From: an uncultured Bacilli bacterium
GTDB lineage: Bacteria; Bacillota_I; Bacilli_A; RFN20; CAG-826
NCBI GenBank assembly: GCA_944349595.1
Contig: CALVNF010000002.1
Location: 4,386-68,385, forward strand
Direction: 5' to 3'
DNA length: 64,000 nt
The notes beneath the pieces are model-generated. The model worked only from the letters and a program-made list of their open reading frames with translations. It was not told where the DNA came from and made no database searches. Both the position numbers and the translations under genes were made by a program. Shown piece after piece: positions 1 to 17,831 of the stretch (its first letter is position 1; each line of letters starts with the position of its first letter).

Positions 1-2847
1 CTAATCGATACTTTTAGCAAAATTAGAAGCAGAGGGCTCACCAAAGAAATATATGTGCCTAGAAAAGAACAACAAGACTGTATTAATGCATTAAAGAGAT
101 ATTTTGATAAACATCCTACTGGCGGTAGGTTCCTTTTAAACTGCAAGATGAGGTTTGGTAAGTCTTATACCACATATAAATATTGTGAAGAAGCTAATCT
201 TAGGAAAATTCTTATTCTTACTTTTATTCCTGCTGTTGAGTCTTCTTGGAAAGATGATTTAACACACATTAAAACTGAATATTTGTATTTAACGGACGAA
301 AATTTAAGACAGCCTCTTTTTCAATTATATTCTATAGATAAGCCTTATGTACTCTTTTTGTCGTTGCAGAACATGTTGGGCAAAGATAGAAATAACAATG
401 ATGTAAAAGATAAAATTAAGAAGTTAAAAGACGAACATTTTGATTTAGTAATATTAGATGAATATCACTTCGGTGCTTGGAATCAAAGAACTCAAGAAAA
501 ATTAGAGGATTTTGATCCTGAATATCAAAAAGAGTTAAGTAAGACAAAAGATGTAATTGATAAATTCGGTATTAAGACTGATAAAATTATTTGTTTATCT
601 GGTACTCCGTTTAAAGCTATTGCTAGGGGCGAATTTATTGAGGAGAATACTTTTACTTATTCGTATTTTGATGAGCAGAAGAACAAATATCCAAACGACG
701 ATATTACTCATCCTAACCCTCAATATGCTCAATTTCCAGATATGAAGATATTTGGTTATAACATGTCGGCTTTATTTGGCAATTTAACAGCCCAGGTATT
801 TTCTGATGATAAGATATTAGGAAAAAAATACTTTTCTTTGAATCGCTTCTTTGAGGTCAGAAAAGATAGCAGCGACACCGAACCTTATACATTTGTTTAT
901 GAAAAAGAAATCAAAAAATGGCTTGATATCATAAAAGGTCGTTCTGATTTTGGTCGTAATTTTCCATATTCTAAACAAGAAATGCTAGATAACAACAAGC
1001 ATACTTTATGGCTTATGCCTACAGTAAATTGTTGCATTGCAATGAGTTTGTTACTTGAAAAAGACGAATATTTTAACAAATATCAAATTATTAATCTCTC
1101 TTCTCCTGAAGTAGGTTCAGGTGTTGATGCTTATGATTTTTTGCTAGAAAACATTAATAAGGCTAATAACATAAATAAACTAGGCAGCATTGCATTAACA
1201 GTTAATAAATTAACAACAGGTGTAACCGTTAAAGATTGGTTTAGCGTCTTTGTACTAAAAGATTTAGCGTCACCTGAACAATATTTCCAATCTATATTTA
1301 GAATTCAAACTCCACTTGTAATAGATAGAGAAATAAAAAAGAAGGTTGGATATGTTTATGATTTTAACATTGATAGAGCCTCAGCCTTACTTCTAAGGTA
1401 TGCAGAAGAAACAGCTGATCAATCAGTTACTAAACTCCAAATTGCTAAGCTCATAGTTAAATATTTACCTATCTTTATGAATGGTGATATGGATAAGCCT
1501 ATCGAATATGAAGTGTTTTATCAATTAGCTCAATTTGGTGACCAAAGCAATGTACCTTTATCTAGAAAGATTACAAATCTTGAGGCTACTACGCATGCTT
1601 TAAATGAAGAAACTATGGCAGCAATGCTTAACGATCCTGAAGTCAGCGACATAATAAAAAGAGTTTTTGCTCACTCTAAATTAACTAAGAGTAAAGATAG
1701 AACAAAGCCTGCAAAGCCTGAACAAGATGGTTTTGAAACTGAAGTGGCGAAAAAAGGTCGAGATCTTGGTTATAGACTAGGGATGGAAGACTCAAAGAAT
1801 TATCTTGATTTAGATGATTCAGATGTTCAAAAAGCTTTCGAAGATAACATTGAAAAATATATCGCTGAAAACATGCCAAAAAAATACAGAGATAAAGAAA
1901 AAGTCTGGTATTCAAACGGATTTAAAAAAGGCTATGAAAGCGGAGTTAATGTTCCTATTAAGAAACTAAATTGTGGCTATGATGATGGCAAGAAATTTGT
2001 TGACGAGGTTAAGAAAAAATTCGGTGAAAATATTCATTATACAAGAGAGACTAGACCTCAAATAATGAACTTTACTAATCCATATTTAAATAACATCAAT
2101 CATATACCACTACAATATAGAGGAATGCTATATAAAAGATGGTACATTGAATCATTTGTGAGAGCAGTGAAAGATTGTTTGAGACCAGTTATAAAAGACG
2201 AAGATGGTGGAACAACAATAGATGATGCTGATAATGTGCTAAGACATATTTTAGCGAGGTTAGTTGAATTCTTATATATCAGTGTTTATAGAGAGACAAC
2301 ATTTAATGAAATATTTCAAAACGCTGACCCTAATGTATTCCTTGAGGCTGTTGGCATCCAAAAGAAGGAGTTTGAAACTTTAAACAAATATCGTGTCTTT
2401 GAAGAAAATACTCTTAATAACTATATTCATGAATTCTTTGTTAATGAATCTATTGGTAAAGACTTAACATCAAATGGGAAAGAGTCAGATCAATACCGAA
2501 ATAGTTTTGGCTGGTTTGGCTTTAATAAAATTGAGCAAGAAGTCAAAGATTATGTTAACGAAACAAATGCTAAAGCTGTTCAAGATGAAATTGCTTCTTA
2601 TAGTAATATGGTTAGCGCTGATGCCGATGCTGATTTAGATATTGAAGAAACACCACAAAGCGAAACTGCTAACGATGAGGATAGTTTAGAAGAGAGGATA
2701 ATATCTTTACTGAAAATTAACACTAAAGGTATGAGTTCTAAAAAGATAGCTAAAGCTTTGAGCGTTTCTAAAAAAGAAGTTAACAAAGTTCTTTATGAAA
2801 GCAAGAATAAATTCACTCAAGACTTTTTGTCATGGAAATTAAAGTGA
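1..2847 (+). CDS. Superfamily-2 DEAD/DEAH-type helicase family protein, 5' end outside the window, C-terminal winged-helix-like tail
   Basis: Frame 1 is open from position 1, and the listed GTG at 55 is only an internal alternative start. Motifs: Walker-A-like RFGKSYT, motif II VILDEYHFG (DExH), motif III LSGTP, motif VI-like QSIFRIQT. The C-terminus (KKIAKALSVSKKEVNKVL) looks like a wHTH. The ORF ends in TGA. Confidence 0.6.
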   Translation, partial: LIDTFSKIRSRGLTKEIYVPRKEQQDCINALKRYFDKHPTGGRFLLNCKMRFGKSYTTYKYCEEANLRKILILTFIPAVESSWKDDLTHIKTEYLYLTDENLRQPLFQLYSIDKPYVLFLSLQNMLGKDRNNNDVKDKIKKLKDEHFDLVILDEYHFGAWNQRTQEKLEDFDPEYQKELSKTKDVIDKFGIKTDKIICLSGTPFKAIARGEFIEENTFTYSYFDEQKNKYPNDDITHPNPQYAQFPDMKIFGYNMSALFGNLTAQVFSDDKILGKKYFSLNRFFEVRKDSSDTEPYTFVYEKEIKKWLDIIKGRSDFGRNFPYSKQEMLDNNKHTLWLMPTVNCCIAMSLLLEKDEYFNKYQIINLSSPEVGSGVDAYDFLLENINKANNINKLGSIALTVNKLTTGVTVKDWFSVFVLKDLASPEQYFQSIFRIQTPLVIDREIKKKVGYVYDFNIDRASALLLRYAEETADQSVTKLQIAKLIVKYLPIFMNGDMDKPIEYEVFYQLAQFGDQSNVPLSRKITNLEATTHALNEETMAAMLNDPEVSDIIKRVFAHSKLTKSKDRTKPAKPEQDGFETEVAKKGRDLGYRLGMEDSKNYLDLDDSDVQKAFEDNIEKYIAENMPKKYRDKEKVWYSNGFKKGYESGVNVPIKKLNCGYDDGKKFVDEVKKKFGENIHYTRETRPQIMNFTNPYLNNINHIPLQYRGMLYKRWYIESFVRAVKDCLRPVIKDEDGGTTIDDADNVLRHILARLVEFLYISVYRETTFNEIFQNADPNVFLEAVGIQKKEFETLNKYRVFEENTLNNYIHEFFVNESIGKDLTSNGKESDQYRNSFGWFGFNKIEQEVKDYVNETNAKAVQDEIASYSNMVSADADADLDIEETPQSETANDEDSLEERIISLLKINTKGMSSKKIAKALSVSKKEVNKVLYESKNKFTQDFLSWKLK

Positions 2848-2860
2848 GGGCAACTAACCT

Positions 2861-3154
2861 ATGGAAACTAAATCACAAGGAGTAATCTATATACTTACCA
2901 ACCCATCATTCCCTGATTACGTTAAGATTGGATAAGCTGACGATGTTCAAAAGCGTCTGAAGGAACTAAACAGGAGCGAGTGTATTCCTTTTGCTTTTAG
3001 GCTTTATGCTTATTATGAAGTTCCTAGAAGACTCACTGATATGAAGCTCCATCAAATGATAGATAAGTTAAATCCTAATCTTAGATCTATTGAGGAATTT
3101 GATGGTAAGACTAGAAAAAGTGAATATTCTAACGCTTCGGAGCTACCAGTTTAA
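2861..3154 (+). pseudogene. T5orf172 (GIY-YIG-like / MUG113-type) domain gene interrupted by an in-frame TAA
   Basis: ATG at 2861 gives METKSQGVIYILTNPSFPDYVKIG, then TAA at 2933-2935. The same frame continues as ADDVQKRLKELNRSECIPFAFRLYAYYEVPRRL...ELPV to a stop at 3152-3154. Together this is the canonical T5orf172 core (VIYILTN...KIGxxxxxxxRLxxLN). Confidence 0.6.
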
Positions 3155-3585
3155 AGCTAGAGAGCCATACCCTATTTAACTAATAATTTTGACCTTGAGA
3201 GCCATCTTTAAATTATATCCCCTAAAATATTTTTACTTGAGTTTTCATTGAGTAATTTCAACCATAATTCAGAAAAATATTATCTATAATATTTTTTAAG
3301 ACACACAATTATTCAATTTTTAAAACTTTAAATTCATATAAAAAAACATTATTTTTAGTATTATTTAATTAAGATTGATGAGTTTGGAACAAAAACGAAA
3401 ATTAATGATACATTTTTACCAACAATAGATTCTTTTAAAATTCAAAATGTAAGTAAAGACTTAAAACTAACAGAAAGAAAAAATAAATTAATAAGTGATA
3501 TCATCAGTTAAGCTAAAATTGTAATTTACAGATATTTAAAACATAATATATTATGTTTTTAATTAATATTTTTATAATAACGTGT

Positions 3586-3630: not shown

Positions 3631-5886
3631 ATGAAAAAAAGTAATGTATATTATGTATATAATCAATGTAAAGTTTGTAAAAATAGAAAAGAAAGAATTC
3701 AAATAATAAATGATTATCTTAAAGCTGGAAAAATTACAAAAAAAGAAGCGGAAGATATAAAAAGAAAATTAATTAAAAAACCAACTTCATATCTTGTTTA
3801 TAGCATTTTAAAAAAGTATTCATCTGTAAATAATAGATTAACAAGAGAAGATATTATTAAAAAAATTGAAGAGGATTATGGTGTTAAAATTGAATCAAAA
3901 GATACAATAAGTGCAGCCATAGAAGAAATTGGTTATATAAATTATGTTGATTTAAAAGAAAATACTTTTGATAAGTTTAATGAATCTACAATTGTAAAAG
4001 CGGGTAAAACTGGATTCTTTTTATTAGATAGTGAAAAATTATCTCTTGGAGAGATCGCTTTTATTGTAAATGCAATTTTATCATCGGTATCGCTAACTAA
4101 AAAAGAAAGTGAAGAATTCATCAAAAAAATATTAAAATTAGGAGAAAGCGATATTACTTTTCATGATTTATTAAATGTAAAAGAAAATTATAGTTATAAT
4201 TCATCACTAATTAAAATAGAAACTAATTCAACACTAGATAAATTATCATTATTAACTAGAGCTAAAGAAAATAAAAAAGATATAACTTTTGAAACAGGTG
4301 TAGGATTAATTAATAATGAAGTAGATTTAAAAAATGCATTTAATAACAAGAAAACAACAATTACTATGACTCCTTATTATATATTTTCTAAAAATGGTAA
4401 GGAAATTGTTATTGGCTCTGTTGCGAATACTAATTTTAATTATTTAAAACCAGAGAGTAATTTGAATCATAAATATCTAATATATTTATGTTATGTTCAA
4501 AACATGGAAAACATTCAAATATTAGATACTTCAACACCATTTAAAATTTATAACAAAATAAATTTTGATATGTTTATTTCTAAATTTATAAATGGAGAAA
4601 CATTTATAAAAGAAGGAACATTTCATCCAGCACAACTTAATATTATAAGGTATATATGTCTTGTAAAATCTATTTATGGACTTAAAATTTTAATTGATTT
4701 TTTTAACTTACCATTTAAAACTCAAAAACAAAAAAAGAAAATTAATATTAGTGAAGACATAAAAAATAGTTCTGTGATATCTTTAAGTAAAAGTGAACAA
4801 AATAAGCTTATAAAAGAAAGTAGTAAATATCGATATACGATCCGATTTAATACTGATTACTTTAAGATGGAATCATTTATTTCTTATATTAAAATGTATC
4901 AACTTGATTATTTAATTTTTAAAAAAGATATTTCAGGACCATTGAGAATTATTTATTCAAAAGAAGAATATCGCAAAGAACTAATTAATAAATATAATAT
5001 AGAAAATGAAAGAAATTATAAATTAACTTATATAGATAATTTAACTAAACTTCTTGCAATTAAATATAAAATTGGAGAAAAAAGTGATGAATTAAAACAT
5101 TATTTAATTAGAAATAAACTAATTGAAGAACCTCTTATTAACGGCAAATTAAAAATAGCAGAAAATTATTATTATGATAATTTTAAAAATAAATCAAATA
5201 AAGATATTTTTGAAAACTTAGATAATGATCAAATAATATATTTATATAGACATTTAAATTTTAAAGAATTAACTTATCTTGAATTAAATTTAGAATTTTT
5301 AAATGGTTTAAATATTCTTCAAAATTTAGATTTGAATTTAGATATAGATATTAACAATACATTTATAATTGGAGAAGAAAATAATAAATTAATTACATGT
5401 AATTTAGATAATATATGGTATCAAGGAATTTCTGGAGTTGGTAAAAGTACTTTTATTTCATCTCTAATAACAGATTTAATTAATTTAGATAATAATTATA
5501 AGTTTGTTATATATAATGATAAAGGTCTTTATGAATATGATGTAGATAAAGAATATTTATTAAAACCATTATTAAAAAATGCTGAAGAATTAATTAATTT
5601 TTTAAGTTCTTATCAAATAAATGATAATGAAAAGTTAGTTTTAATATTAGATGGAGCTGATTTTGATTTAACTTATCAATTAGGAATTAATAAATTAATA
5701 AATAAAATATTAACTGAAAAGAAGATTATATTAATATTAACAAGTCAAGGACAAGAATTTTTAACTAAAGAAAATTCTAATTTATTTAATATCAAAATCA
5801 ATAAAACAGAAAACAAAGAAAACGGCATAATTATAAATAAAGATAGTTATACTTATTCTATTATAAGATTTGAAGTATTTAGATAA
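3631..5886 (+). CDS. Large hypothetical protein: wHTH-like N-terminus, LRR-like repeats, C-terminal NB-ARC/STAND-like P-loop NTPase
   Basis: RBS TTGGAG precedes the ATG at 3631. The N-terminal segment LTREDIIKKIEEDYGVKIESKDTISAAIEEIGYI fits an HTH_11/DeoR-type wHTH. Residues around 520-580 (LNFKELTYLELNLEFLNGLNILQNLDLNLDIDINN) are LxxLxLxxN-like. Walker A is GISGVGKST and Walker B is LVLILDGADFD. Composition is extreme (K/N/I/Y rich, GC well below the housekeeping genes). Confidence 0.55.
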   Translation: MKKSNVYYVYNQCKVCKNRKERIQIINDYLKAGKITKKEAEDIKRKLIKKPTSYLVYSILKKYSSVNNRLTREDIIKKIEEDYGVKIESKDTISAAIEEIGYINYVDLKENTFDKFNESTIVKAGKTGFFLLDSEKLSLGEIAFIVNAILSSVSLTKKESEEFIKKILKLGESDITFHDLLNVKENYSYNSSLIKIETNSTLDKLSLLTRAKENKKDITFETGVGLINNEVDLKNAFNNKKTTITMTPYYIFSKNGKEIVIGSVANTNFNYLKPESNLNHKYLIYLCYVQNMENIQILDTSTPFKIYNKINFDMFISKFINGETFIKEGTFHPAQLNIIRYICLVKSIYGLKILIDFFNLPFKTQKQKKKINISEDIKNSSVISLSKSEQNKLIKESSKYRYTIRFNTDYFKMESFISYIKMYQLDYLIFKKDISGPLRIIYSKEEYRKELINKYNIENERNYKLTYIDNLTKLLAIKYKIGEKSDELKHYLIRNKLIEEPLINGKLKIAENYYYDNFKNKSNKDIFENLDNDQIIYLYRHLNFKELTYLELNLEFLNGLNILQNLDLNLDIDINNTFIIGEENNKLITCNLDNIWYQGISGVGKSTFISSLITDLINLDNNYKFVIYNDKGLYEYDVDKEYLLKPLLKNAEELINFLSSYQINDNEKLVLILDGADFDLTYQLGINKLINKILTEKKIILILTSQGQEFLTKENSNLFNIKINKTENKENGIIINKDSYTYSIIRFEVFR

Positions 5887-5891
5887 TACTT

Positions 5892-6557
5892 TTATAAATT
5901 ATTCATCATATTATTTTCTTTTCGATATTTATTGTATTCTTTAAATTTATCAGGGAATTTGTACACTATACAAATTACCATTATAAATTTCATATACATA
6001 CCAAAATTTTCAATTTTTTTATCATCAATTTCTCCACAAGTTAAAGCATTTAAGTTATTATACATATCAATAACTTTTACTAGACTTGCCGTTGGATTTA
6101 TAATTAGTTTAGATATATATTCATCATATGATTCACTTTTATTATGAGTTAATAGTAAAAGTGATGCTTTAATATTAACTTGAAAATAACTTAATAAATC
6201 AACTTCATTAAATAAATTTTCTAAATCATTTATTGTCAATTTTGTGTCTTCAATTATATCATGAAGACAACATAATTCTTGCACACCTCTATATGGTATT
6301 TCTAATTCGTCTAATTTATCTAAATCTATCGAATTAGGATTATTATTAATTCCAATTAAATCTTGATATAATTCCATACATCTAAGTGGATGAAAATAAT
6401 AATATTCTTCGTTTAATCTAACTTGATCTTGATGAGCATAATAAGCAATCATTATTGACAAAAATACACTATATTGAGATAACTCTTTTGCTTGGTCAAT
6501 TGTAATGTTTTTATGCTTACTATAATAATTAATTACTTCTCCATATAATTTATTCAT
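5892..6557 (-). CDS. Stand-alone HD-domain (p)ppGpp-hydrolase-like protein (small alarmone hydrolase, Rel/SpoT/Mesh1 family)
   Basis: Rel/SpoT hydrolase motifs: R-x-N-x3-YYYFHP (HD1), LCCLHDIIEDT (the HDxxED signature), and VKVIDMYNNLNAL (cf. LADRLHNMRTL). The start is placed at MNKLYGEV behind a GGAGGT RBS. Confidence 0.7.
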   Translation of the reverse strand: MNKLYGEVINYYSKHKNITIDQAKELSQYSVFLSIMIAYYAHQDQVRLNEEYYYFHPLRCMELYQDLIGINNNPNSIDLDKLDELEIPYRGVQELCCLHDIIEDTKLTINDLENLFNEVDLLSYFQVNIKASLLLLTHNKSESYDEYISKLIINPTASLVKVIDMYNNLNALTCGEIDDKKIENFGMYMKFIMVICIVYKFPDKFKEYNKYRKENNMMNNL

Positions 6558-6648
6558 TTTTTTACCTCCAGTAATTACAAAATAAATATAAAACATAAAT
6601 TATTAGTTTTGGTAAAATCTCATTTGACTAATATGGTATTATATAAAT

Positions 6649-7035
6649 ATGAGTTTAGAAGAATATATTAAATTTCATAAAACTAACAAAGAAAAATCAT
6701 TAGATTTTGTAAGTTATTTATATTATTTAATGGATAAATATAAATTTGATTCGGTAACTTTATATAATAAAGCAAATATTAGTAAGCAATTATTTTCTAG
6801 TGTAATATCTAATAAATCAAAACCAAGTATTAATTTTATTATCAAAATTGTCTTTGCAATGCATGTCAATAATCATGAATGTAAATATTTATTAAAAAAA
6901 GCTAATTTTACATTAGCTTCTAATTCTAATTATTCATTAATTATTCGTTATTTTATTGAAAGTAGTAATTTTGATTTAAATAAACTAAATGATGCTTTAA
7001 TAAAATACGGATATCAGGATAAAATAATTTATTAA
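6649..7035 (+). CDS. XRE-family helix-turn-helix protein, divergent from the HD hydrolase gene
   Basis: The central segment TLYNKANISKQLFSSVISNKSKPSINFIIKIVFAMHV matches the Cro/C1 HTH pattern (ISxxxxSxxxxxxxxPSxxxxxKIxxAL). Confidence 0.5.
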   Translation: MSLEEYIKFHKTNKEKSLDFVSYLYYLMDKYKFDSVTLYNKANISKQLFSSVISNKSKPSINFIIKIVFAMHVNNHECKYLLKKANFTLASNSNYSLIIRYFIESSNFDLNKLNDALIKYGYQDKIIY

Positions 7036-7118: not shown

Positions 7119-7271
7119 ATGAGTGAGATTAACAAAAACAATAATAATTTCAATATTGGTAATAAAGATACCGATGAAATTAATGAAGAGTTTGGAAATG
7201 AATTAAGAGATTTTTTTCAATCATTAATTGATGAAGAATTTGACGATGATGACGAAGATGATGAATATTAA
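7119..7271 (+). CDS. Small highly acidic protein (50 aa; C-terminus EEFDDDDEDDEY), not in the supplied ORF track
   Basis: AGGAG RBS at 7106-7110, ATG at 7119, and the ORF MSEINKNNNNFNIGNKDTDEINEEFGNELRDFFQSLIDEEFDDDDEDDEY runs to TAA at 7269-7271. It sits tightly upstream of the next gene. Confidence 0.45.
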   Translation: MSEINKNNNNFNIGNKDTDEINEEFGNELRDFFQSLIDEEFDDDDEDDEY

Positions 7272-7283
7272 TTGGAGGATTTT

Positions 7284-7574
7284 ATGAAAAAATATAGTTA
7301 TTTAATGTTTGTTGAAAGTGGTGAAGGACAAAGGGTTTATACAAGAAGAGATGGTATCAGATTAAGACTTGTTGGTGAAAAAGAAGATTATAATATTATT
7401 AATAATTTAAAATTTGATGAATGGAATTGCACAACCTTTAAAGATTTAGGAGAAGCAGGATATGATTTAATTCATGTTGTTAATTCAGGAATTTTCTTAA
7501 ATAAAGGTTCTTCTAGAGAAGGTGGAGTTCTTGAAATTGCTTATTTATTTAAAGCGGAATTTGAAGAAAATTAA
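7284..7574 (+). CDS. Hypothetical small protein (96 aa)
   Basis: RBS TTGGAGGA at 7272-7279 and ATG at 7284 (MKKYSYLMFVESGEGQRVYTRRDGIRLRL...). Likely co-transcribed with the acidic ORF. Confidence 0.5.
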   Translation: MKKYSYLMFVESGEGQRVYTRRDGIRLRLVGEKEDYNIINNLKFDEWNCTTFKDLGEAGYDLIHVVNSGIFLNKGSSREGGVLEIAYLFKAEFEEN

Positions 7575-7682
7575 ATAAATTATAAAAAAACATTAATTTA
7601 AATTATTTTAATTAATAAAAATAACTTTATATATATTTGCTCATAAAGAGTAAAATAATTATATATAAAGGTGGTCTTTAAT

Positions 7683-9992
7683 ATGCCAAAAAAATTTAAA
7701 AGTTTAAGTTTTATAATAATAGCTCTATTTTTAAGTTTATCTAGTATTTCTTCTTGCAATAATACTTATCAAAATACGACATCAGTTGTTCAATATGTTT
7801 TAGATATTGAAAATGGAGAAGAAGTTCAATTAAAAGTTAATGACACTCTTCAATTAAATATATCAAGTCAAAATTTAACCGAAACAATAATTTATACTTC
7901 ATCAGATCCAAGTGTTGTAAGTGTCAGTAATACTGGTTTAATAACTGCCTTAAGTGAAGGAGAAAGTTTTATTACTGCAAGTGCTAATAATACATCAGAT
8001 ACAATTAAAGTTCTTGTTAGTAAAAATACAACAATTTTAAATCCTAGTATTGAAATTCTTGATGGAGATGAGCTTAGTTTAGAAATTGAACAAACTTATA
8101 AATTAAATGTTAAAACCGAAAACATAACTGAAGATTTAGTATTTTCTTCTCAAAATGAATTTATTGCAAAAGTTGATAATTCTGGTTTAATTACTGCCAT
8201 AAGTAAGGGTGAAACATTAATTGAAGTAAAAGCTAACAATGTTAAAGATCTAATAAAAATTATTGTAAAAGAAAAAACAATAACTCCTACACCTGTTTTG
8301 GAAATATTAACCCCAGATAATAGTGAATTAGAAGTTGAAAGTAGTTTACAACTTAATTTGAAAACTGAAAATTTAACTGAAGATGTTACTTATTCATCTT
8401 CTAATAATGAAATTGCGACAATTTCAAATACTGGTTTAATAAGTGGCATTTCAAAAGGCAGCGTCACAATTAGTGCTTCAGCCAATGGAATTAGTGATTC
8501 AATAAATATAATTGTTAAAGAAAAAGAAGTTCCTCCAAGTTTAGTTATTTTAAATGGAGAAGAAATAACATTAAATTTAGGTGATACTTTACAATTAAAT
8601 GTTAGTTTAGAAAATATTGAAGGTTCAATATTATATGAAAGTAATAATTCTAATGTTGCAAGTGTTAATCAAAGTGGATTAATTAGTGCAATTAAAGAAG
8701 GTGAAGCAATAATAACAGCTTCTATTGATGAAGTTAAAGATAGTATTAAAGTTACAGTAGTTCCAAATGAAGATGGTAGTGTTCAATATTATGAACATAT
8801 CTTTAATAAAGATGATTTTAATGGAGGATCTACAAGTGCAGGAAGCTTTTCTTCAAATGGTTTAACTTGGAATTATGATGCTTTTAATTATTTAGGTCAA
8901 GATTATGAAGGAATTCAAATTGGATCTAATAGTAAACCTCATAAAACTCCATGGAATATAGTTACTCAATTTAATGGTGAAGTGACAGTTTTATCTTATG
9001 AATTAATCATTAAAACAAACTCACCTGCTAGATATGATGTAACAATGGATAACTATAGCCATGGAGAGAATTTACCAAAAGAAAATATTGCAAAACTTTG
9101 GGGAGAAAATGATATATCAATTGATACAACCTCATTTAAATTATCGTTATCTAATCAAACAAAAGCCATTTATTTATATAGTGTTAGTTTAAAAGTATTT
9201 GTTCCAAGTGATGTAGATTTAAATTTAAAGAAACCTGAAATTGATTTAGTTGCAGCAAAACCTGGAGAAGGAGTTGTTCCAAATGCAAACTATACATTAA
9301 CTAGTAAAGAAGATTATTATAAAGATATTGATTTTGAAGCAGATTCAACAATATTAAAAAATGAATTACATTCTTTAATTTCAAATATGACAAAAATTAA
9401 TTATGGAACAGTTTCTAATACAATTATTTATACCGATGAAAGTATTAAAAAACCAGGTGTTTTATATGGTATGTTTGATGGAGATGAATTAAGTGCAAGC
9501 TATAATGGAACATGGAATAAAGAACATGTCTGGCCATGTTCTTTAATGAAAGAAAACGGAAAAGATCCTCGACCATCAGATTCAACTAAAAATCATGCAA
9601 CTGATTTATTTAATTTAAGAGCATGTTGTCAAACAACAAATGGTTTACATGGAAATAAATTTTATGATAATACAGATTCAAGTAATACATTTTTTCCAAA
9701 TGTAGCAAATAATGGTAGTGTATTACATAAATTTGAAGGTGATCATAGAGGTGATGTTGCAAGAATTTTATTTTATATGGCTTTAAGATATGACTTTTTA
9801 AGTATTGTTGAAGATATTAATAATGCAACAGATACTCAAATTGGAAAACTTTCTGTTTTATTAAAGTGGAATGAATTAGATCCAGTAGATGATTTTGAAA
9901 TTCAAAGAAATAATAGAATTTATGAATTTCAAGGAAACAGAAATCCATTTATTGATTATCCTGAATTAGTTGACAAATTATATTCAATTTAA
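7683..9992 (+). CDS. Surface lipoprotein nuclease: signal peptide + lipobox, 4x Big_2 Ig-like repeats, C-terminal Endonuclease-I (EndA/Dns) domain
   Basis: RBS AAAGGTGG then ATG at 7683. Lipobox SISSC. Four roughly 95-aa repeats of the form VxSVSNTGLITAxSEGExxITASANNxSDxIKVxV (Big_2). The C-terminus carries WNKEHVWP, NLRAC...N, GDVARILFYMALRY and GNRNPFIDYPEL, which are Endonuclease_1 family hallmarks. Confidence 0.85.
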   Translation: MPKKFKSLSFIIIALFLSLSSISSCNNTYQNTTSVVQYVLDIENGEEVQLKVNDTLQLNISSQNLTETIIYTSSDPSVVSVSNTGLITALSEGESFITASANNTSDTIKVLVSKNTTILNPSIEILDGDELSLEIEQTYKLNVKTENITEDLVFSSQNEFIAKVDNSGLITAISKGETLIEVKANNVKDLIKIIVKEKTITPTPVLEILTPDNSELEVESSLQLNLKTENLTEDVTYSSSNNEIATISNTGLISGISKGSVTISASANGISDSINIIVKEKEVPPSLVILNGEEITLNLGDTLQLNVSLENIEGSILYESNNSNVASVNQSGLISAIKEGEAIITASIDEVKDSIKVTVVPNEDGSVQYYEHIFNKDDFNGGSTSAGSFSSNGLTWNYDAFNYLGQDYEGIQIGSNSKPHKTPWNIVTQFNGEVTVLSYELIIKTNSPARYDVTMDNYSHGENLPKENIAKLWGENDISIDTTSFKLSLSNQTKAIYLYSVSLKVFVPSDVDLNLKKPEIDLVAAKPGEGVVPNANYTLTSKEDYYKDIDFEADSTILKNELHSLISNMTKINYGTVSNTIIYTDESIKKPGVLYGMFDGDELSASYNGTWNKEHVWPCSLMKENGKDPRPSDSTKNHATDLFNLRACCQTTNGLHGNKFYDNTDSSNTFFPNVANNGSVLHKFEGDHRGDVARILFYMALRYDFLSIVEDINNATDTQIGKLSVLLKWNELDPVDDFEIQRNNRIYEFQGNRNPFIDYPELVDKLYSI

Positions 9993-14274: not shown

Positions 14275-14949
14275 ATGAAAAAAATTGACGATAAATATTT
14301 TATTAAAGATAAAAAAGTAAACTATAATCCTTCAATTGAACAAGTGCTTACAAATGATGAAGTTATTCTTTGGAAAGGAAAACCAAGGAAATTATCTTTT
14401 ATTTTATCTATCATTTTCAAATTTTTACCATTTGTTATTATATGGCTAGCAATTGATATATCTTTAATTGTAATGATGTCTAGTTTTTTCTCTGAGATAC
14501 CATTGCCTGGAATTATTTTTTTGATAATCTTTTTTATCTTACATTTATTACCAGTTTGGATATGGATTTCTTCTATAATTACTGCCTCAAGAAGACAAAA
14601 ATTAGAAGAATATGCCTTTACTGGAAGTAGAATTATTATTAAAACTGGTTTTATTGGTGCAAATATATCTAGTATTAATTATTCATCAATTTCTAGTGTA
14701 AATTTAAAGATTGGAATTATTGAAAGATTATGTAAAGTTGGAGATATTTATATTGTTGCGGATAATAAAAAATATATTTTAGAAGATATTAAAGATCCAT
14801 ATTTTATTTATGAAAAATTACAAAAAATAGCTAATGATATAAAATCAGATATAATTTATCCAAATAATTATCGACCTAGTGAAAATAATGGCTATAAAAC
14901 AAGTTATAATCCAAAAGAAGTTGATAAAATTATTAAAAAAGATAAATAA
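14275..14949 (+). CDS. Membrane protein with a bacterial PH-like (YdbS/YdbT, DUF304-type) domain
   Basis: DEVILWKGKP motif followed by two TM helices, the DUF304-like arrangement. Confidence 0.45.
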   Translation: MKKIDDKYFIKDKKVNYNPSIEQVLTNDEVILWKGKPRKLSFILSIIFKFLPFVIIWLAIDISLIVMMSSFFSEIPLPGIIFLIIFFILHLLPVWIWISSIITASRRQKLEEYAFTGSRIIIKTGFIGANISSINYSSISSVNLKIGIIERLCKVGDIYIVADNKKYILEDIKDPYFIYEKLQKIANDIKSDIIYPNNYRPSENNGYKTSYNPKEVDKIIKKDK

Positions 14950-14954
14950 ATTAT

Positions 14955-17831
14955 ATGAGTGAAACTTATAATGATATTAAAAATGCTCTTAATAAAGCAT
15001 TTATAGATTATAACTTAGATTCTGTCGACTCATTATGTCCATCTTTTTTATATAATAATAAAGAAGAAAATAAAAAAATAATTTCAACTTTAAAAGAAGA
15101 ATTTAAAAAATGTGAAGAATTTTATATTTCCGTTGCATTTATTACATATTCTGGACTTCAAATTTTAAAAGAAACATTAAAAGAAATTAATGATAAAGGT
15201 ATTAAAGGAAAAATTTTAACAAGCGATTATTTATGTTTTACTGAACCAAAAGCTTTGAAATTTTTGCAAGATAATTTTAATAATATTGAAGTTAAAATGT
15301 ATAAATCATCTGATCTTGATGGTTTTCACACAAAAGGTTATTTTTTTAAACAAAAAGATGATATCTATAAAATTATTATCGGATCTAGTAACATTACTGC
15401 AAAAGCTTTAACAGTTAATCAAGAATGGAATACTGAATTAATTTCCACAAAAGATGGAAAATTAATAAAAGAATTATTTGATCAATTTAATTTATTATGG
15501 AATAAATCGACCGATTTAAAAGATTATATAAATACATATACTAAAATTTATGAAGAAGCCAATAAAGAAAAAGTTATATTAAATGTTGATAATATAATTA
15601 ATCAAAAAATAGAACCAAATTCAATGCAAATAGAGTTTAGTCAAAAATTTAAACAACTTATTGAAAATGATGGTAAAAGAGGTTTATTAATTTCTTCTAC
15701 TGGAACTGGAAAAACATACGCAAGTGCATTTGCTTTAAAAAATGTTAACGCTAAAAAAGTTCTTTTCTTAGCTCATAGAACAACATTATTGATTCAAGCT
15801 ATATCTGCTTATCAGCGAATTTTTCCTAATTCATCTTTTTCAATTCTAACTGGAGATAAAACTTATATTAAAAATTTAAATGATGTTTCATATTTTGATA
15901 ATAATGAATATGATTTTGTATTTTCAACTTGTGAGATGATGTCTAAAAAAATTGACGAATTTATTAACGCTAAAAAATTTGATTATATTATTATTGATGA
16001 AGTTCATAGAGCGGGTTCAAATACATATCAAAAAATATTGAATTATTTTAAACCTAAATTTATTCTTGGAATGACTGCAACACCTGAAAGAACCAATGAT
16101 GAAAGTTTGATTTTTAATTTATTTGATCATAATGTTATTTTTGAAATTAGATTAGAAGATGCCCTTGATTATGGTTTGTTATGTCCTTTTCATTACTATG
16201 GAATAACTGATTTAAAAGGAATTAATGATGAAACATATGACAAACAAGACTTTAATAAATTATTTAGTAATGAAAGAGTTGAATATATTATTAAACAAAG
16301 CAATTTTTATGGATATAGCGGTGATAGATTAAGAGGTTTAATTTTTGTCTCAAGAAAAGATGAGGGAAGAAGACTTGAAACTTTATTGAATCAAAAAAAT
16401 TATAAAACTAAATTTTTAGATGGCTCTTTTTCATCAAGCGAGAGAGAAAAATACTTTAGATTACTTGAAGAAACTAATAAAAATAATGAATATTTAGATT
16501 TTATTATTTCTGTTGATATTCTTAATGAAGGCGTTGATATTCCAGAAGTTAATCAAATAATAATGTTAAGACCAACTCAATCAAGCATTATTTTTATTCA
16601 ACAACTTGGTAGAGGTCTAAGAAAATGGAAGAATAAAGATTTTGTAACAATTATTGACTTTATTGGAAATTATGATTCAAATTATATGATAGCTAAAGCA
16701 TTTTCAGAATCTGGTAATAAAGAACAAGCTAGATTAGTTGTTACATCTTCGTTTATTCCTGGAATTTCTACAATTGAATTTGACGAAATTGCGCAAAAGA
16801 AAATATTTGAATCAATTAAGAAAACTAATTTTGATACTATGTCGAACTTTAAAATCGAATATATGCATTTAAAAAATAGAATAAATAGAATTCCAAATTT
16901 GACTGATTTTTATGAATTTACTTATTTTGATCCATATAGAATTATTGAAAAATTTAAATCTTATCAAGATTTTCTTTTAAAAATTGAAAAAGATTTAAAT
17001 TATTCACAAAAAGAACTTGAATATTATCGATTTATTTCAAAAATTATATCTTCTGGATTAAGATTAGATGAAGTTAATGCTCTTGAATATCTAATTAAAA
17101 ATAAGAATTTAACTAAATATTTAGATGAAAAATTAATTTCTTTAAATAAAAAATTAACAATTATTAATGAATTTAATTGTAGTTTTTATGGAAAAAACAA
17201 TGATTCTTTAAGTTTAATTAATAGTTCATTAAACATTAGTGAAGATTTTGATGAAATGTTAAAAAATTTTTCATTTTTAGATAATATTAATAACTTAATA
17301 TTAATGTCTAAATTAAGGAATAATAAATTTTATGGAAAAAAATATAAAAATTCTGATTTATGTTTAAATTCTTTATATTCAAGAGAAGATATTTCAATTA
17401 TTTTTAATTGTAAAGTGAATAGAGCTAGTACAATTTATGGTTATCAATATTTAAAAGAAGAAAATGTATTTCCTATTTTTATTAATTATATAAAAACTCC
17501 AGAAATTTCTGATGCCACTAGATATGAAGATATGTTTATAAATAGACAAAAGTTTCAATGGAATTCAAGACACGGTGAATATATTGAATCAAAAAACATG
17601 CAAACTTTAATTAATGCTAAAAATAATAATACAAAAATTTATTTATTTGTTAGAAAATCAATTGATGAAAATAGCGGAAGTAACAAACATTATTTTTTAG
17701 GTGAAATGAGTGTGATAGATTTTAAAGAAATTATGAGAAATAATTATAAATATGTTTTGTTTAATTTTGCTTTAAGCGATGAGGTAAGAAGTGATTTATA
17801 TGAATATTTTAAAAAGGATATAAATAATTAA
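14955..17831 (+). CDS. PLD-family (HKD) nuclease / SF2 DEAD-DEAH helicase fusion protein with a large uncharacterised C-terminal domain
   Basis: HKD motif GFHTKGYFFKQKDDIYKIIIGSSNIT (HxKx4Dx6GSxN). Helicase motif I STGTGKTY, motif II IIIDEVHRAG, motif III GMTATPER, motif VI QQLGRGLR. About 320 aa follow with no recognisable motif. Confidence 0.75.
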   Translation: MSETYNDIKNALNKAFIDYNLDSVDSLCPSFLYNNKEENKKIISTLKEEFKKCEEFYISVAFITYSGLQILKETLKEINDKGIKGKILTSDYLCFTEPKALKFLQDNFNNIEVKMYKSSDLDGFHTKGYFFKQKDDIYKIIIGSSNITAKALTVNQEWNTELISTKDGKLIKELFDQFNLLWNKSTDLKDYINTYTKIYEEANKEKVILNVDNIINQKIEPNSMQIEFSQKFKQLIENDGKRGLLISSTGTGKTYASAFALKNVNAKKVLFLAHRTTLLIQAISAYQRIFPNSSFSILTGDKTYIKNLNDVSYFDNNEYDFVFSTCEMMSKKIDEFINAKKFDYIIIDEVHRAGSNTYQKILNYFKPKFILGMTATPERTNDESLIFNLFDHNVIFEIRLEDALDYGLLCPFHYYGITDLKGINDETYDKQDFNKLFSNERVEYIIKQSNFYGYSGDRLRGLIFVSRKDEGRRLETLLNQKNYKTKFLDGSFSSSEREKYFRLLEETNKNNEYLDFIISVDILNEGVDIPEVNQIIMLRPTQSSIIFIQQLGRGLRKWKNKDFVTIIDFIGNYDSNYMIAKAFSESGNKEQARLVVTSSFIPGISTIEFDEIAQKKIFESIKKTNFDTMSNFKIEYMHLKNRINRIPNLTDFYEFTYFDPYRIIEKFKSYQDFLLKIEKDLNYSQKELEYYRFISKIISSGLRLDEVNALEYLIKNKNLTKYLDEKLISLNKKLTIINEFNCSFYGKNNDSLSLINSSLNISEDFDEMLKNFSFLDNINNLILMSKLRNNKFYGKKYKNSDLCLNSLYSREDISIIFNCKVNRASTIYGYQYLKEENVFPIFINYIKTPEISDATRYEDMFINRQKFQWNSRHGEYIESKNMQTLINAKNNNTKIYLFVRKSIDENSGSNKHYFLGEMSVIDFKEIMRNNYKYVLFNFALSDEVRSDLYEYFKKDINN

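Follow-up and report, generated by a model that had tools for sequence, protein, structure and literature searches.

A divergently transcribed XRE-type regulator accompanies an orphan SAH-like HD hydrolase in an uncultured Bacilli bacterium: a candidate antidote cassette

In a 64,000-nt stretch of DNA from an uncultured Bacilli bacterium (assembly GCA_944349595.1, contig CALVNF010000002.1, positions 4,386 to 68,385; hereafter the window), we analyzed a two-gene locus that consists of a stand-alone Rel/SpoT-type HD hydrolase resembling the small alarmone hydrolases (SAHs), encoded at 5892–6557 on the minus strand (221 aa, stop codon counted in the coordinates), and an XRE-type helix-turn-helix (HTH) protein of 128 aa, encoded at 6649–7035 on the plus strand. 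The start codons of the two divergent genes enclose a control region of 91 nt (6558–6648), in which back-to-back promoters probably lie. The hydrolase gene is real and intact and encodes a single-domain HD hydrolase of the Rel/SpoT type, which by its alignments belongs to an uncharacterised subfamily of ~215 aa that is closest to Aph1 and is invisible to Pfam. We read the pair as an XRE-controlled, mobile-element-derived orphan SAH cassette that would act as a portable antidote to toxic pyrophosphokinases, a reading to which we assign about even chances.

The mechanical open reading frame (ORF) of the hydrolase starts at 6596 (234 aa) and ends at 5892 on the minus strand, and the ATG at 6557, which has GGAGG before it, yields the product of 221 aa. 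The motifs quoted in the first-pass annotation of this DNA (EEYYYFHP, LCCLHDIIEDT and LVKVIDMYNNLNAL) are all present, and the assignment made there to stand-alone Rel/SpoT-type HD hydrolases of the SAH kind is backed by PDB sequence matches, an AlphaFold2 (AF2) fold, Foldseek and a residue alignment. A phmmer search of the PDB with the hydrolase returned Aph1 (7smg, 7.9e-11) and then Rel/SpoT hydrolase domains, while the family profile matched Aph1 at 1.2e-21, the Rel proteins of S. aureus and B. subtilis at ~1e-10 and Mesh1 at 9e-10; PHROG 990, a ‘metal-dependent phosphohydrolase’, matches at 1.9e-21. The AF2 model, built from an alignment of 52 full-length relatives, has a pLDDT of 95.5 and a pTM of 0.92. 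Foldseek against the PDB placed Aph1 first (TM 0.88 normalised to Aph1, rmsd 2.6 Å, 25% identity), followed by MESH1, PaSAH, SpoT and Rel, with all top hits being of that fold, so that model and matches agree on the all-helical HD fold of the RelA/SpoT homologs (RSH). The 221 aa form one domain, with no SYNTH, TGS or ACT domain. The earlier description of a hydrolase signature and nothing else therefore stands as regards a second domain, but the protein exceeds the Aph1 core by ~30 residues at the N-terminus, by an insertion and by two long helices at the C-terminus. No Pfam model, HD_4 included, matched the hydrolase at E < 0.1, and the NCBIfam model spoT_relA (TIGR00691) aligned at 2e-5 over its hydrolase part only, with 23 bits against a cut-off of 499 bits. 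The failure of these curated models is due to the divergence of the subfamily and not to a loss of motifs.

Careful alignment revealed no loss of catalytic HD residues. The conserved residues in the 221-aa numbering are H42, R47, H56/P57, H99/D100, E103/D104, K161, D164 and N168, with H56, H99-D100, E103-D104, D164 and N168 aligning to H53, H77-D78, E81-D82, D144 and N148 of Rel. All metal and catalytic residues are intact in the window protein, and these positions are kept in 46–52 of the 52 family members. Against strain-level relatives, the dN/dS of the hydrolase gene ranges between 0.14 and 0.25, indicating purifying selection.

The family became visible only in an exhaustive HMMER search of 1.84 billion representatives, which gave 978 matches at E ≤ 1e-3; about 60 of these are full-length relatives of ~215 aa (24–46% identity), and the remaining matches are mostly proteins of ~145 aa that cover only the Aph1-aligned segment. 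A word-indexed protein search retrieved four to nine hydrolase relatives, and eight for the neighbouring gene. A genome scan with the pattern LHDV[IV]ED[TS], derived from a 12-sequence alignment, mostly picked up Rel/SpoT and further HD proteins; the best 80 loci, taken from 185,579 species genomes, included one full-length family member, in locus L004 (35% identity), and this pattern cannot match the LHDIIEDT of the window itself. A viral scan with the hydrolase alignment likewise yielded one family member, in locus L084, and the viral scan with the HTH alignment found L084 again. Neither the hydrolase nor the HTH protein nor any of the small downstream genes matched a PADLOC model.

The first-pass annotation regarded the XRE gene as a plausible local regulator, and the comparison of loci bears this out and extends it. 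In L004, from a Bacilli metagenome-assembled genome (MAG), and in L084, an IMG/VR contig, the hydrolase homologs are 35–38% identical to the window protein, and a gene for a copy of the HTH protein (52–55% identical) lies directly upstream of the hydrolase gene on the same strand. A metagenome scan seeded with the HTH protein gave 35 loci, of which 31 were informative, having enough flanking DNA, and the ORFs of these loci were searched with the hydrolase profile. A hydrolase-family gene directly adjoins the HTH gene in 26 of the 31, with 19 pairs co-directional (HTH, then hydrolase) and seven divergent as in the window. HTH homologs that adjoin hydrolase homologs are 51–63% identical to the HTH protein of the window. 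Over 22 loci, the HTH proteins are on average 66% identical to one another and the hydrolases 50%, and the two sets of pairwise values are correlated (r = 0.86), a sign of co-inheritance. The HTH protein is thus a conserved partner and the presumed repressor of the hydrolase gene.

The divergent XRE gene itself, with its 91-nt spacer, was confirmed at the level of family and structure only. No Pfam HTH model matched the 128-aa product alone, and its only match in the PDB was SinR at E = 1. In the alignment of 26 HTH members, HTH_3 was matched by 14 and HTH_26 by 13, with a best value of 3.3e-6, and the family profile matched CylR2 at 1.2e-3. The AF2 model was built from a shallow alignment of close relatives and has a pLDDT of 78.5, with ~90 over residues 21–80, and its C-terminal part is therefore less certain. 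It superposes at ~2 Å on the HTH domains of DdrO, 434 Cro, C.BclI and SinR, and shows the five-helix fold of the Cro/C1 type. The core spans approximately aa 20–84 and is followed by two extra C-terminal helices (aa 94–119), and the family carries an invariant NNHECKYLLKK motif. The HTH gene is also under purifying selection, with a dN/dS of 0.12–0.16 against strain-level relatives.

DdrO, SinR, CylR2 and the controller (C) proteins of restriction-modification (R-M) systems share the five-helix HTH_3 fold with the HTH protein; DdrO resembles it further in size and architecture, with an HTH followed by a helical C-terminal part, and the R-M controllers in having an autoregulatory inverted repeat that overlaps the promoter, for which the window offers a candidate repeat only. 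Unlike the known XRE and Cro/C1 repressors, the HTH protein of the window is very divergent, carries the invariant NNHECKYLLKK and has a domain that also occurs fused to Macro domains, and no IrrE- or ImmA-type protease partner was seen with it.

The intergenic DNA of the divergent-class loci contains one conserved block, ATTTGGTMAAA-N5-TTTGAC(A)TTTAYAAT, which is located just upstream of the HTH start in all of them. The pattern TTTGGTMAAM-N5-WTTGAC has a single site in the window at ≤1 mismatch (0.04 expected), at 6608–6628 on the plus strand (TTTGGTAAAATCTCATTTGAC), and among 210 fetched loci it matches solely upstream of the HTH gene, in 13 loci that are all of the divergent class. The candidate operator is an imperfect inverted repeat, GTAAAA-N5-TTTGAC in the window and GTCAAA-N5-TTTGAC in relatives, lying over a −35-like TTGGTM hexamer. 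On the minus strand of L194, the same bases of the block read TTGACC-N18-TATAGT ahead of the hydrolase gene. These arrangements are consistent with back-to-back promoters whose −35 regions overlap under one operator, and with binding of the HTH protein to this candidate operator at its own promoter.

The start of the HTH gene shifts between strains. The window has ATG at 6649 and an upstream in-frame ATA (6631–6651), and L002 (9906–9926) shows the reverse, with an ATG 18 nt upstream and ATA at the start position of the window. In the other divergent-class loci, a −10-like TATAAT stands only 6–8 nt before the HTH ATG, which suggests a leaderless or near-leaderless HTH mRNA in this class.

The substrate of the hydrolase was considered by comparison with Aph1, the adenosine 3′-pyrophosphohydrolase 1 of Bacteroides caccae, which is the best match in both sequence and structure and has the same HD metal centre. 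The (p)ppGpp-hydrolase signature that had been assigned to the protein holds for the HD residues, which are kept, but its closest characterised relative is this (p)ppApp hydrolase and not a (p)ppGpp-specific enzyme. Aph enzymes are defined by the six residues D24, R96, D116, R119, K133 and Y134, and the D24R/R119A double mutant of Aph1 gains ppGpp hydrolysis (PMC10083569, Ahmad et al. 2023). Pairwise and profile alignments place R47, K150, N170, T173, M187 and Y188 of the window protein at these positions, and only the tyrosine, kept in 46 of the 52 members, is identical. The D24-equivalent position is Arg in 50 of 52 members, as in Rel, and the R119-equivalent position is T, S, D or G, with Arg in none of the 52. 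At the D116-equivalent position, Asn occurs in 29 members and Asp in three; Lys or Arg occupies the R96-equivalent position in 30 of 52, and the K133-equivalent position is variable. At the two experimentally decisive positions, the family thus naturally resembles the broadened-specificity mutant of Aph1. An adenine-only specificity is therefore unlikely, given the Arg at the D24 position and the lack of Arg at the R119 position, and the pocket is plausibly promiscuous or guanine-permissive rather than adenine-restricted.

The C-terminal homology that defines the Aph enzymes (Y90–E143) is present, with profile positions 95–201 aligning to Aph1 49–147 at a domain E of 2.2e-16. Membership of the ppApp-specific Aph family was rejected, as the six-residue specificity signature is absent. 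The Aph1 protomer is compact, with eight helices; helix 0 at the N-terminus and helix 9 at the C-terminus, which other SAHs have, are missing from it, and this is the basis of its tetramer (Ahmad et al.). The hydrolase model, on the other hand, has 13 helical segments, with two helices before the core (aa 3–26) and two long ones after it (aa 179–214), and an Aph1-type tetramer is not expected because of these extra helices. The two proteins differ in length (~143 aa against 221 aa, with the terminal helices and the insertion in the latter) and in setting, since an XRE regulator adjoins the hydrolase of the window in place of an Apk2 toxin or Tis1-like immunity gene. They are alike in having phage-associated relatives, and Aph1 is itself an enzymatic antidote to a toxic pyrophosphokinase. 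PaSAH (6yvc), Mesh1/MESH1 (3nr1, 5vxa) and the orphan SAH of Xanthomonas (PMC9765508) are likewise stand-alone enzymes of the same fold (Foldseek E 1e-4 to 1e-3); they are more distant from the window hydrolase (TM ~0.65, rmsd ~6 Å, 17–20% identity) and are encoded by chromosomal housekeeping-type genes without a cognate repressor.

The first-pass annotation saw no synthetase gene nearby, and this was upheld. A SYNTH hidden Markov model (HMM) built from 13 SYNTH domains of long RSH proteins and run with hmmsearch --max found nothing better than E 9.2 in the window and E 0.16 across ~45 module and related loci, a search that a very divergent toxic small alarmone synthetase (toxSAS) could escape. 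A toxSAS–SAH type IV toxin–antitoxin (TA) module of the FaRel–ATfaRel kind and an Apk2–Tis1–Aph1 cluster were both rejected, there being no adjacent synthetase toxin. As no synthetase is encoded with the cassette, the hydrolase would act in trans.

In the reading that we favour, the HTH repressor would bind the inverted repeat at 6608–6628, overlapping the −35 elements of two back-to-back promoters, and would thereby control both itself and the hydrolase. The hydrolase, through its Rel/SpoT metal centre (H56, H99-D100 and D164, with E103-D104 and N168), would strip the 3′-pyrophosphate from products of RelA/SpoT-type synthetases, with (p)ppGpp and/or (p)ppApp and possibly 3′-pyrophosphorylated tRNA as its predicted substrates. 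Acting in trans, it would be an orphan ‘type IV antitoxin’, providing immunity or counter-defence against synthetases from phages, mobile elements or competitors. Such roles have precedents. All of the toxSAS tested are neutralised in trans by ATfaRel and by stand-alone phage SAHs of the PbcSpo and PaSpo types, and prophages often encode SAHs (PMC7229694). Aph1 protects enzymatically against a MuF-fused (p)ppApp synthetase toxin of a phage, and (p)ppGpp synthetase toxins delivered by the type VII secretion system exist in Gram-positives (PMC12691689). PbcSpo (Salmonella phage PVP-SE1), PaSpo (phage SSU5) and ATfaRel are single-domain RSH hydrolases (PMC7229694) that share the predicted mode of action, PbcSpo and PaSpo occurring on phages and prophages without a cognate synthetase; in the literature compared, none of the three is described with an XRE partner, a ~95-aa partner or fusion, or a Macro linkage. 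Of the roles proposed in the first-pass annotation, the orphan antitoxin or anti-alarmone factor is thus kept, in line with an orphan hydrolase and no synthetase nearby, but a partnership with the adjacent nucleoside triphosphatase (NTPase) is unsupported.

A mobile-element origin of the cassette, which here would be a stable chromosomal pair at the edge of a defence-island hotspot, is proposed because most relatives are found in prophage-like contexts. In L084, two large serine recombinases and a holin-like gene lie upstream of the module, and homologous recombinases occur near the modules of L184, L185 and L200. A ParB-N6/N4 methylase follows the module in L173, L178 and L183. Full-length relatives with ~27% identity were found in 188 phage records, mostly as a ‘metal-dependent phosphohydrolase’ of Pseudomonas Pakpunavirus beside an endolysin, and BFVD contains many viral structure matches to the hydrolase. 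In the window, nucleotide homology between strains begins at 3504, ~130 nt upstream of the gene at 3631–5886. The cargo to the left of this point (hotspot 1–3504) comprises a ResIII protein and an Eco57I-type methylase in the window strain, a type I R-M system in L001 (12936–20021), and MazG-like and SLFN-like helicase genes in L002 (13061–16279) and L209 (6657–9875), with L170 (13711–19561) as a further compared locus; the left flank of the hotspot in L209 is a class-I aminoacyl-tRNA synthetase gene (tRNA-synt_1c). As this cargo varies between strains, the cassette lies on the conserved flank of a defence-island hotspot.

Several observations weigh against this antidote reading. The HTH gene occurs without an adjoining hydrolase in five of the 31 informative loci, and P0155, from a Clostridia MAG lineage, has the hydrolase (30% identity) without this HTH gene, so the pairing is frequent and not obligate; near-duplicates (L187/L188/L204 and L194/L195) also mean that the locus counts overstate independence. 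The P0155 hydrolase instead adjoins two small HTH_3 genes and a variable EcoRI-methylase/GmrSD insert. The cassette of the window is vertically stable in its lineage (dS up to 0.5, same locus) and lies outside any recognisable prophage, so that a domesticated housekeeping role fits as well. The HTH protein of the window is too divergent for Pfam, and its DNA binding and the promoter assignments are read from the sequence alone. Lastly, the synthetase search spanned the 64-kb window and the related loci, and a toxSAS, small alarmone synthetase (SAS) or Rel partner may be encoded at a distance.

Stand-alone RSH hydrolases are an already known kind of protein; the subfamily, its hybrid specificity signature, the conserved XRE partner with an operator-like motif, the fusion to a second small protein (c2) and the linkage to Macro domains are new. 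Stand-alone SAHs of phages are suspected counter-measures to toxSAS abortive infection (Abi) and to injected or secreted synthetase toxins. The present family has a natural hybrid signature, a Rel-type Arg at the D24 position and a residue other than Arg at the R119 position, that puts the published two-residue model of specificity directly to the test, and the conserved repressor with its recognisable candidate operator provides a handle on when such hydrolases switch on. The recurrent operon and fusion linkage to a ~95-aa protein and to Macro domains suggests that antidotes to different nucleotide-based toxins are bundled.

The evidence for this bundling is as follows. The c2 protein (MKYLLLGDDYK...GFDASEPEDSPYRYG..CM, ~95 aa) directly follows the hydrolase in nine loci; its genes include L178 1837–2124, L173 9134–9430, L183 2340–2627 and L194 6977–7288 (minus strand). 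The C-terminal domain (aa ~217–319) of P0032, a hydrolase family member of 319 aa, is a c2 domain with 41% identity, revealing a gene fusion. The invariant motif of c2 is G.D.SEP..S.YR.G...CM, and no Pfam or PHROG match was obtained for it. The 95-aa protein encoded downstream of the HTH gene in the window was considered as a c2 equivalent and rejected (hhalign probability 0.1), and no c2 equivalent was detectable in the window. A Macro-domain gene follows the hydrolase in L084 and L197, and in L084 the next gene is an AIPR Abi gene. In the gut phage PV036457.1 (L211 3302–4336), a fused protein carries a Macro domain (Macro 3e-42) followed by the HTH domain and its C-terminal extension (hhalign against the HTH family 1.9e-15), and an HD hydrolase with the Aph1-type residues D24, D116 and R119 is encoded two genes downstream of the fusion. 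Macro-HTH fusions were also obtained from Firmicutes replicons, of Vescimonas, Peptoclostridium and Selenomonas (plasmid-collection H28, H31 and H32), where the annotation reads O-acetyl-ADP-ribose deacetylase or macro domain protein.

As judged from these arrangements, the HTH family is repeatedly tied to enzymes that reverse nucleotide-derived modifications. A wider proposal, which we put forward tentatively and consider less probable than the SAH cassette alone, is that the ~130-aa HTH family is a dedicated partner of such ‘eraser’ enzymes. Temperate phages and defence islands would then use repressor-gated mobile cassettes (SAH with or without c2 and a Macro domain) as broad-spectrum antidotes against pyrophosphorylating toxins (toxSAS, CapRel, Apk) and ADP-ribosylating toxins. 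The hydrolase, combining a Rel-like Arg with an Aph1-like scaffold, would act on (p)ppGpp, (p)ppApp and 3′-pyrophosphorylated tRNA, and the C-terminal extension of the HTH protein would sense the attack.

It is rather unlikely, in our view, that the hydrolase is mainly a modulator of (p)ppGpp, being the cell's own and possibly only hydrolase that balances a distant SAS, while its phage relatives would lower host (p)ppGpp for replication. R47, the Rel-like Arg at the guanine-contacting position, together with the loss of the adenine determinants of Aph1, would suit such an enzyme, as would a stable chromosomal gene that is under purifying selection in several strains. The relatives in lytic Pakpunavirus, which lie beside the endolysin gene without a regulator, point in the same direction, and a reprogramming of the alarmone signalling of the host by phage enzymes of this kind has been proposed (PMC12846349). 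However, a patchy mobile spread, an own repressor and a location near recombinases, Macro genes and Abi or R-M genes are atypical of a housekeeping enzyme. The rarity of the family is a further point against it: 1.8 billion representatives gave only ~60 clusters, formed at 50% identity, and the best 80 of the species-genome loci a single full-length member, the scan pattern for the latter excluding the window's own LHDIIEDT.

Still less probable is a TA or Abi pair in which the HD enzyme is the growth-arresting effector, acting for instance by MESH1-like depletion of NADPH or of some other essential nucleotide, with the XRE protein as antitoxin or repressor and the ~95-aa partner as a sensor or second antitoxin. 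The HTH-first bicistronic layout of 19 loci, with short or overlapping spacers, is what such a pair would show, and of the two proteins the HTH partner is the better conserved. The sites in prophages and in defence islands near AIPR, sacsin-like and R-M genes would also fit, and two structural neighbours, MESH1 and PaSAH, act promiscuously; complexes of NADPH and 3′-phosphoadenosine 5′-phosphosulfate (PAPS) are among the Foldseek matches. On the other hand, hydrolase homologs without the HTH partner, in P0155 loci and in lytic phages, are unexpected for a toxin, and the divergent transcription in the window and seven other loci is atypical of type II TA operons. The characterised members of the enzyme family are all detoxifiers (PMC7229694, PMC10083569), and the co-occurrence and fusion with Macro ‘erasers’ fits antidotes better.

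The gene at 3631–5886 on the plus strand encodes a 751-aa P-loop protein with GISGVGKST (aa ~598–606) and LVLILDGAD (aa ~672) near its C-terminus, and its convergence with the hydrolase gene, which the first-pass annotation had pointed out, is confirmed by stop codons that are 5 nt apart. Its matches to NACHT, NPHP3_N and RNA_helicase are all below curated cut-offs (E 0.002–0.03), and PADLOC gave a weak mad8 match. All homologs are of strain level except P0185 (43% identity), in which both Walker motifs are replaced and the N-terminal ~330 residues are best conserved; P0185 has as neighbours a YjbR-like gene and a gene for a small HTH protein, and no hydrolase. No homolog of the 751-aa protein was found in the 26 module loci of other lineages, L004, L084 or L164–169. 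The NTPase label is therefore uncertain, and the function of the protein is probably not centred on NTP hydrolysis. The notion that it cooperates with the hydrolase, as the first-pass annotation allowed, or forms with it a new two-component defence system is very improbable and was removed as tempting but unsupported: the adjoining stop codons, the co-conservation of both genes in all strain-level relatives, their place on the conserved side of the defence-island junction and the weak NACHT, NPHP3_N and mad8 P-loop matches speak for it, but it is largely refuted by comparative genomics, as the co-occurrence is confined to strain- or species-level relatives, none of the loci just listed carries the gene, the sole distant homolog has other neighbours and has lost Walker A and B, and every P-loop family match is below its cut-off.

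To the 3′ side of the HTH gene, two small plus-strand genes (7119–7574) encode a very acidic protein of 50 aa (7119–7271), with the acidic tail …DEEFDDDDEDDEY, and a protein of 95 aa (ATG, 7287–7574), each with a strong Shine–Dalgarno sequence. Both are present only in strain-level relatives, had no family matches in Pfam, PADLOC or PHROG, and are lineage-specific genes outside the conserved module. Both may share a transcript with the HTH gene, and the acidic protein could, speculatively, be a DNA mimic. The gene at 7671–9992 (plus strand) is kept in all close relatives; its product is predicted to be a nuclease, either secreted or a lipoprotein, in which four Big_2 Ig-like domains precede an Endonuclease I domain (2.4e-26).

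The window as a whole is a densely coding segment of a bacterial chromosome with ~18–32% G+C and the standard code, carrying nusA, infB, pnp, RNase J and ftsK at 43–58 kb, and its exact sequences were found only in metagenome-derived assemblies (NCBI, ENA, Logan). Neither Rfam nor a tRNA scan gave a match in the window. A promoter consensus scan returned 17 promoter-like sites against 24 expected and a terminator consensus scan returned none, both being uninformative in DNA of 20% G+C.

Further observations concern the island to the left of the cassette and a second locus to its right. A segment of ~256 nt at 3118–3375 is ~81% identical between strains with different cargo (L002 13289–13543, L209 9393–9647), and its first ~93 nt also occur inverted in L002 (13056–13148) and L209 (9788–9880); one possibility is a recombination site, another a small repeat element, at the junction of the island. 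At 2861–3130 on the plus strand, in the 770-nt gap between the ResIII gene and 3631–5886, lies what looks like the remnant of a pseudogene, interrupted by an in-frame stop (METKSQGVIYILTNPSFPDYVKIG*ADDVQKRLKELNRSECIPFAFRLYAYYEV...); by eye it resembles a GIY-YIG/T5orf172-type domain. The ResIII protein, truncated by the window edge (55–2847, plus strand), shows at aa 875–915 a weak, sub-threshold Z-alpha match (E 0.0017) along with other winged-helix or HTH matches. Downstream of the cassette, the gene at 14955–17831 (plus strand) encodes a PLD-helicase-DUF3427 protein that matches the PADLOC model of a type IV methyl-directed restriction enzyme from end to end (2.6e-186), and it is preceded by a bPH_2 protein gene at 14275–14949.

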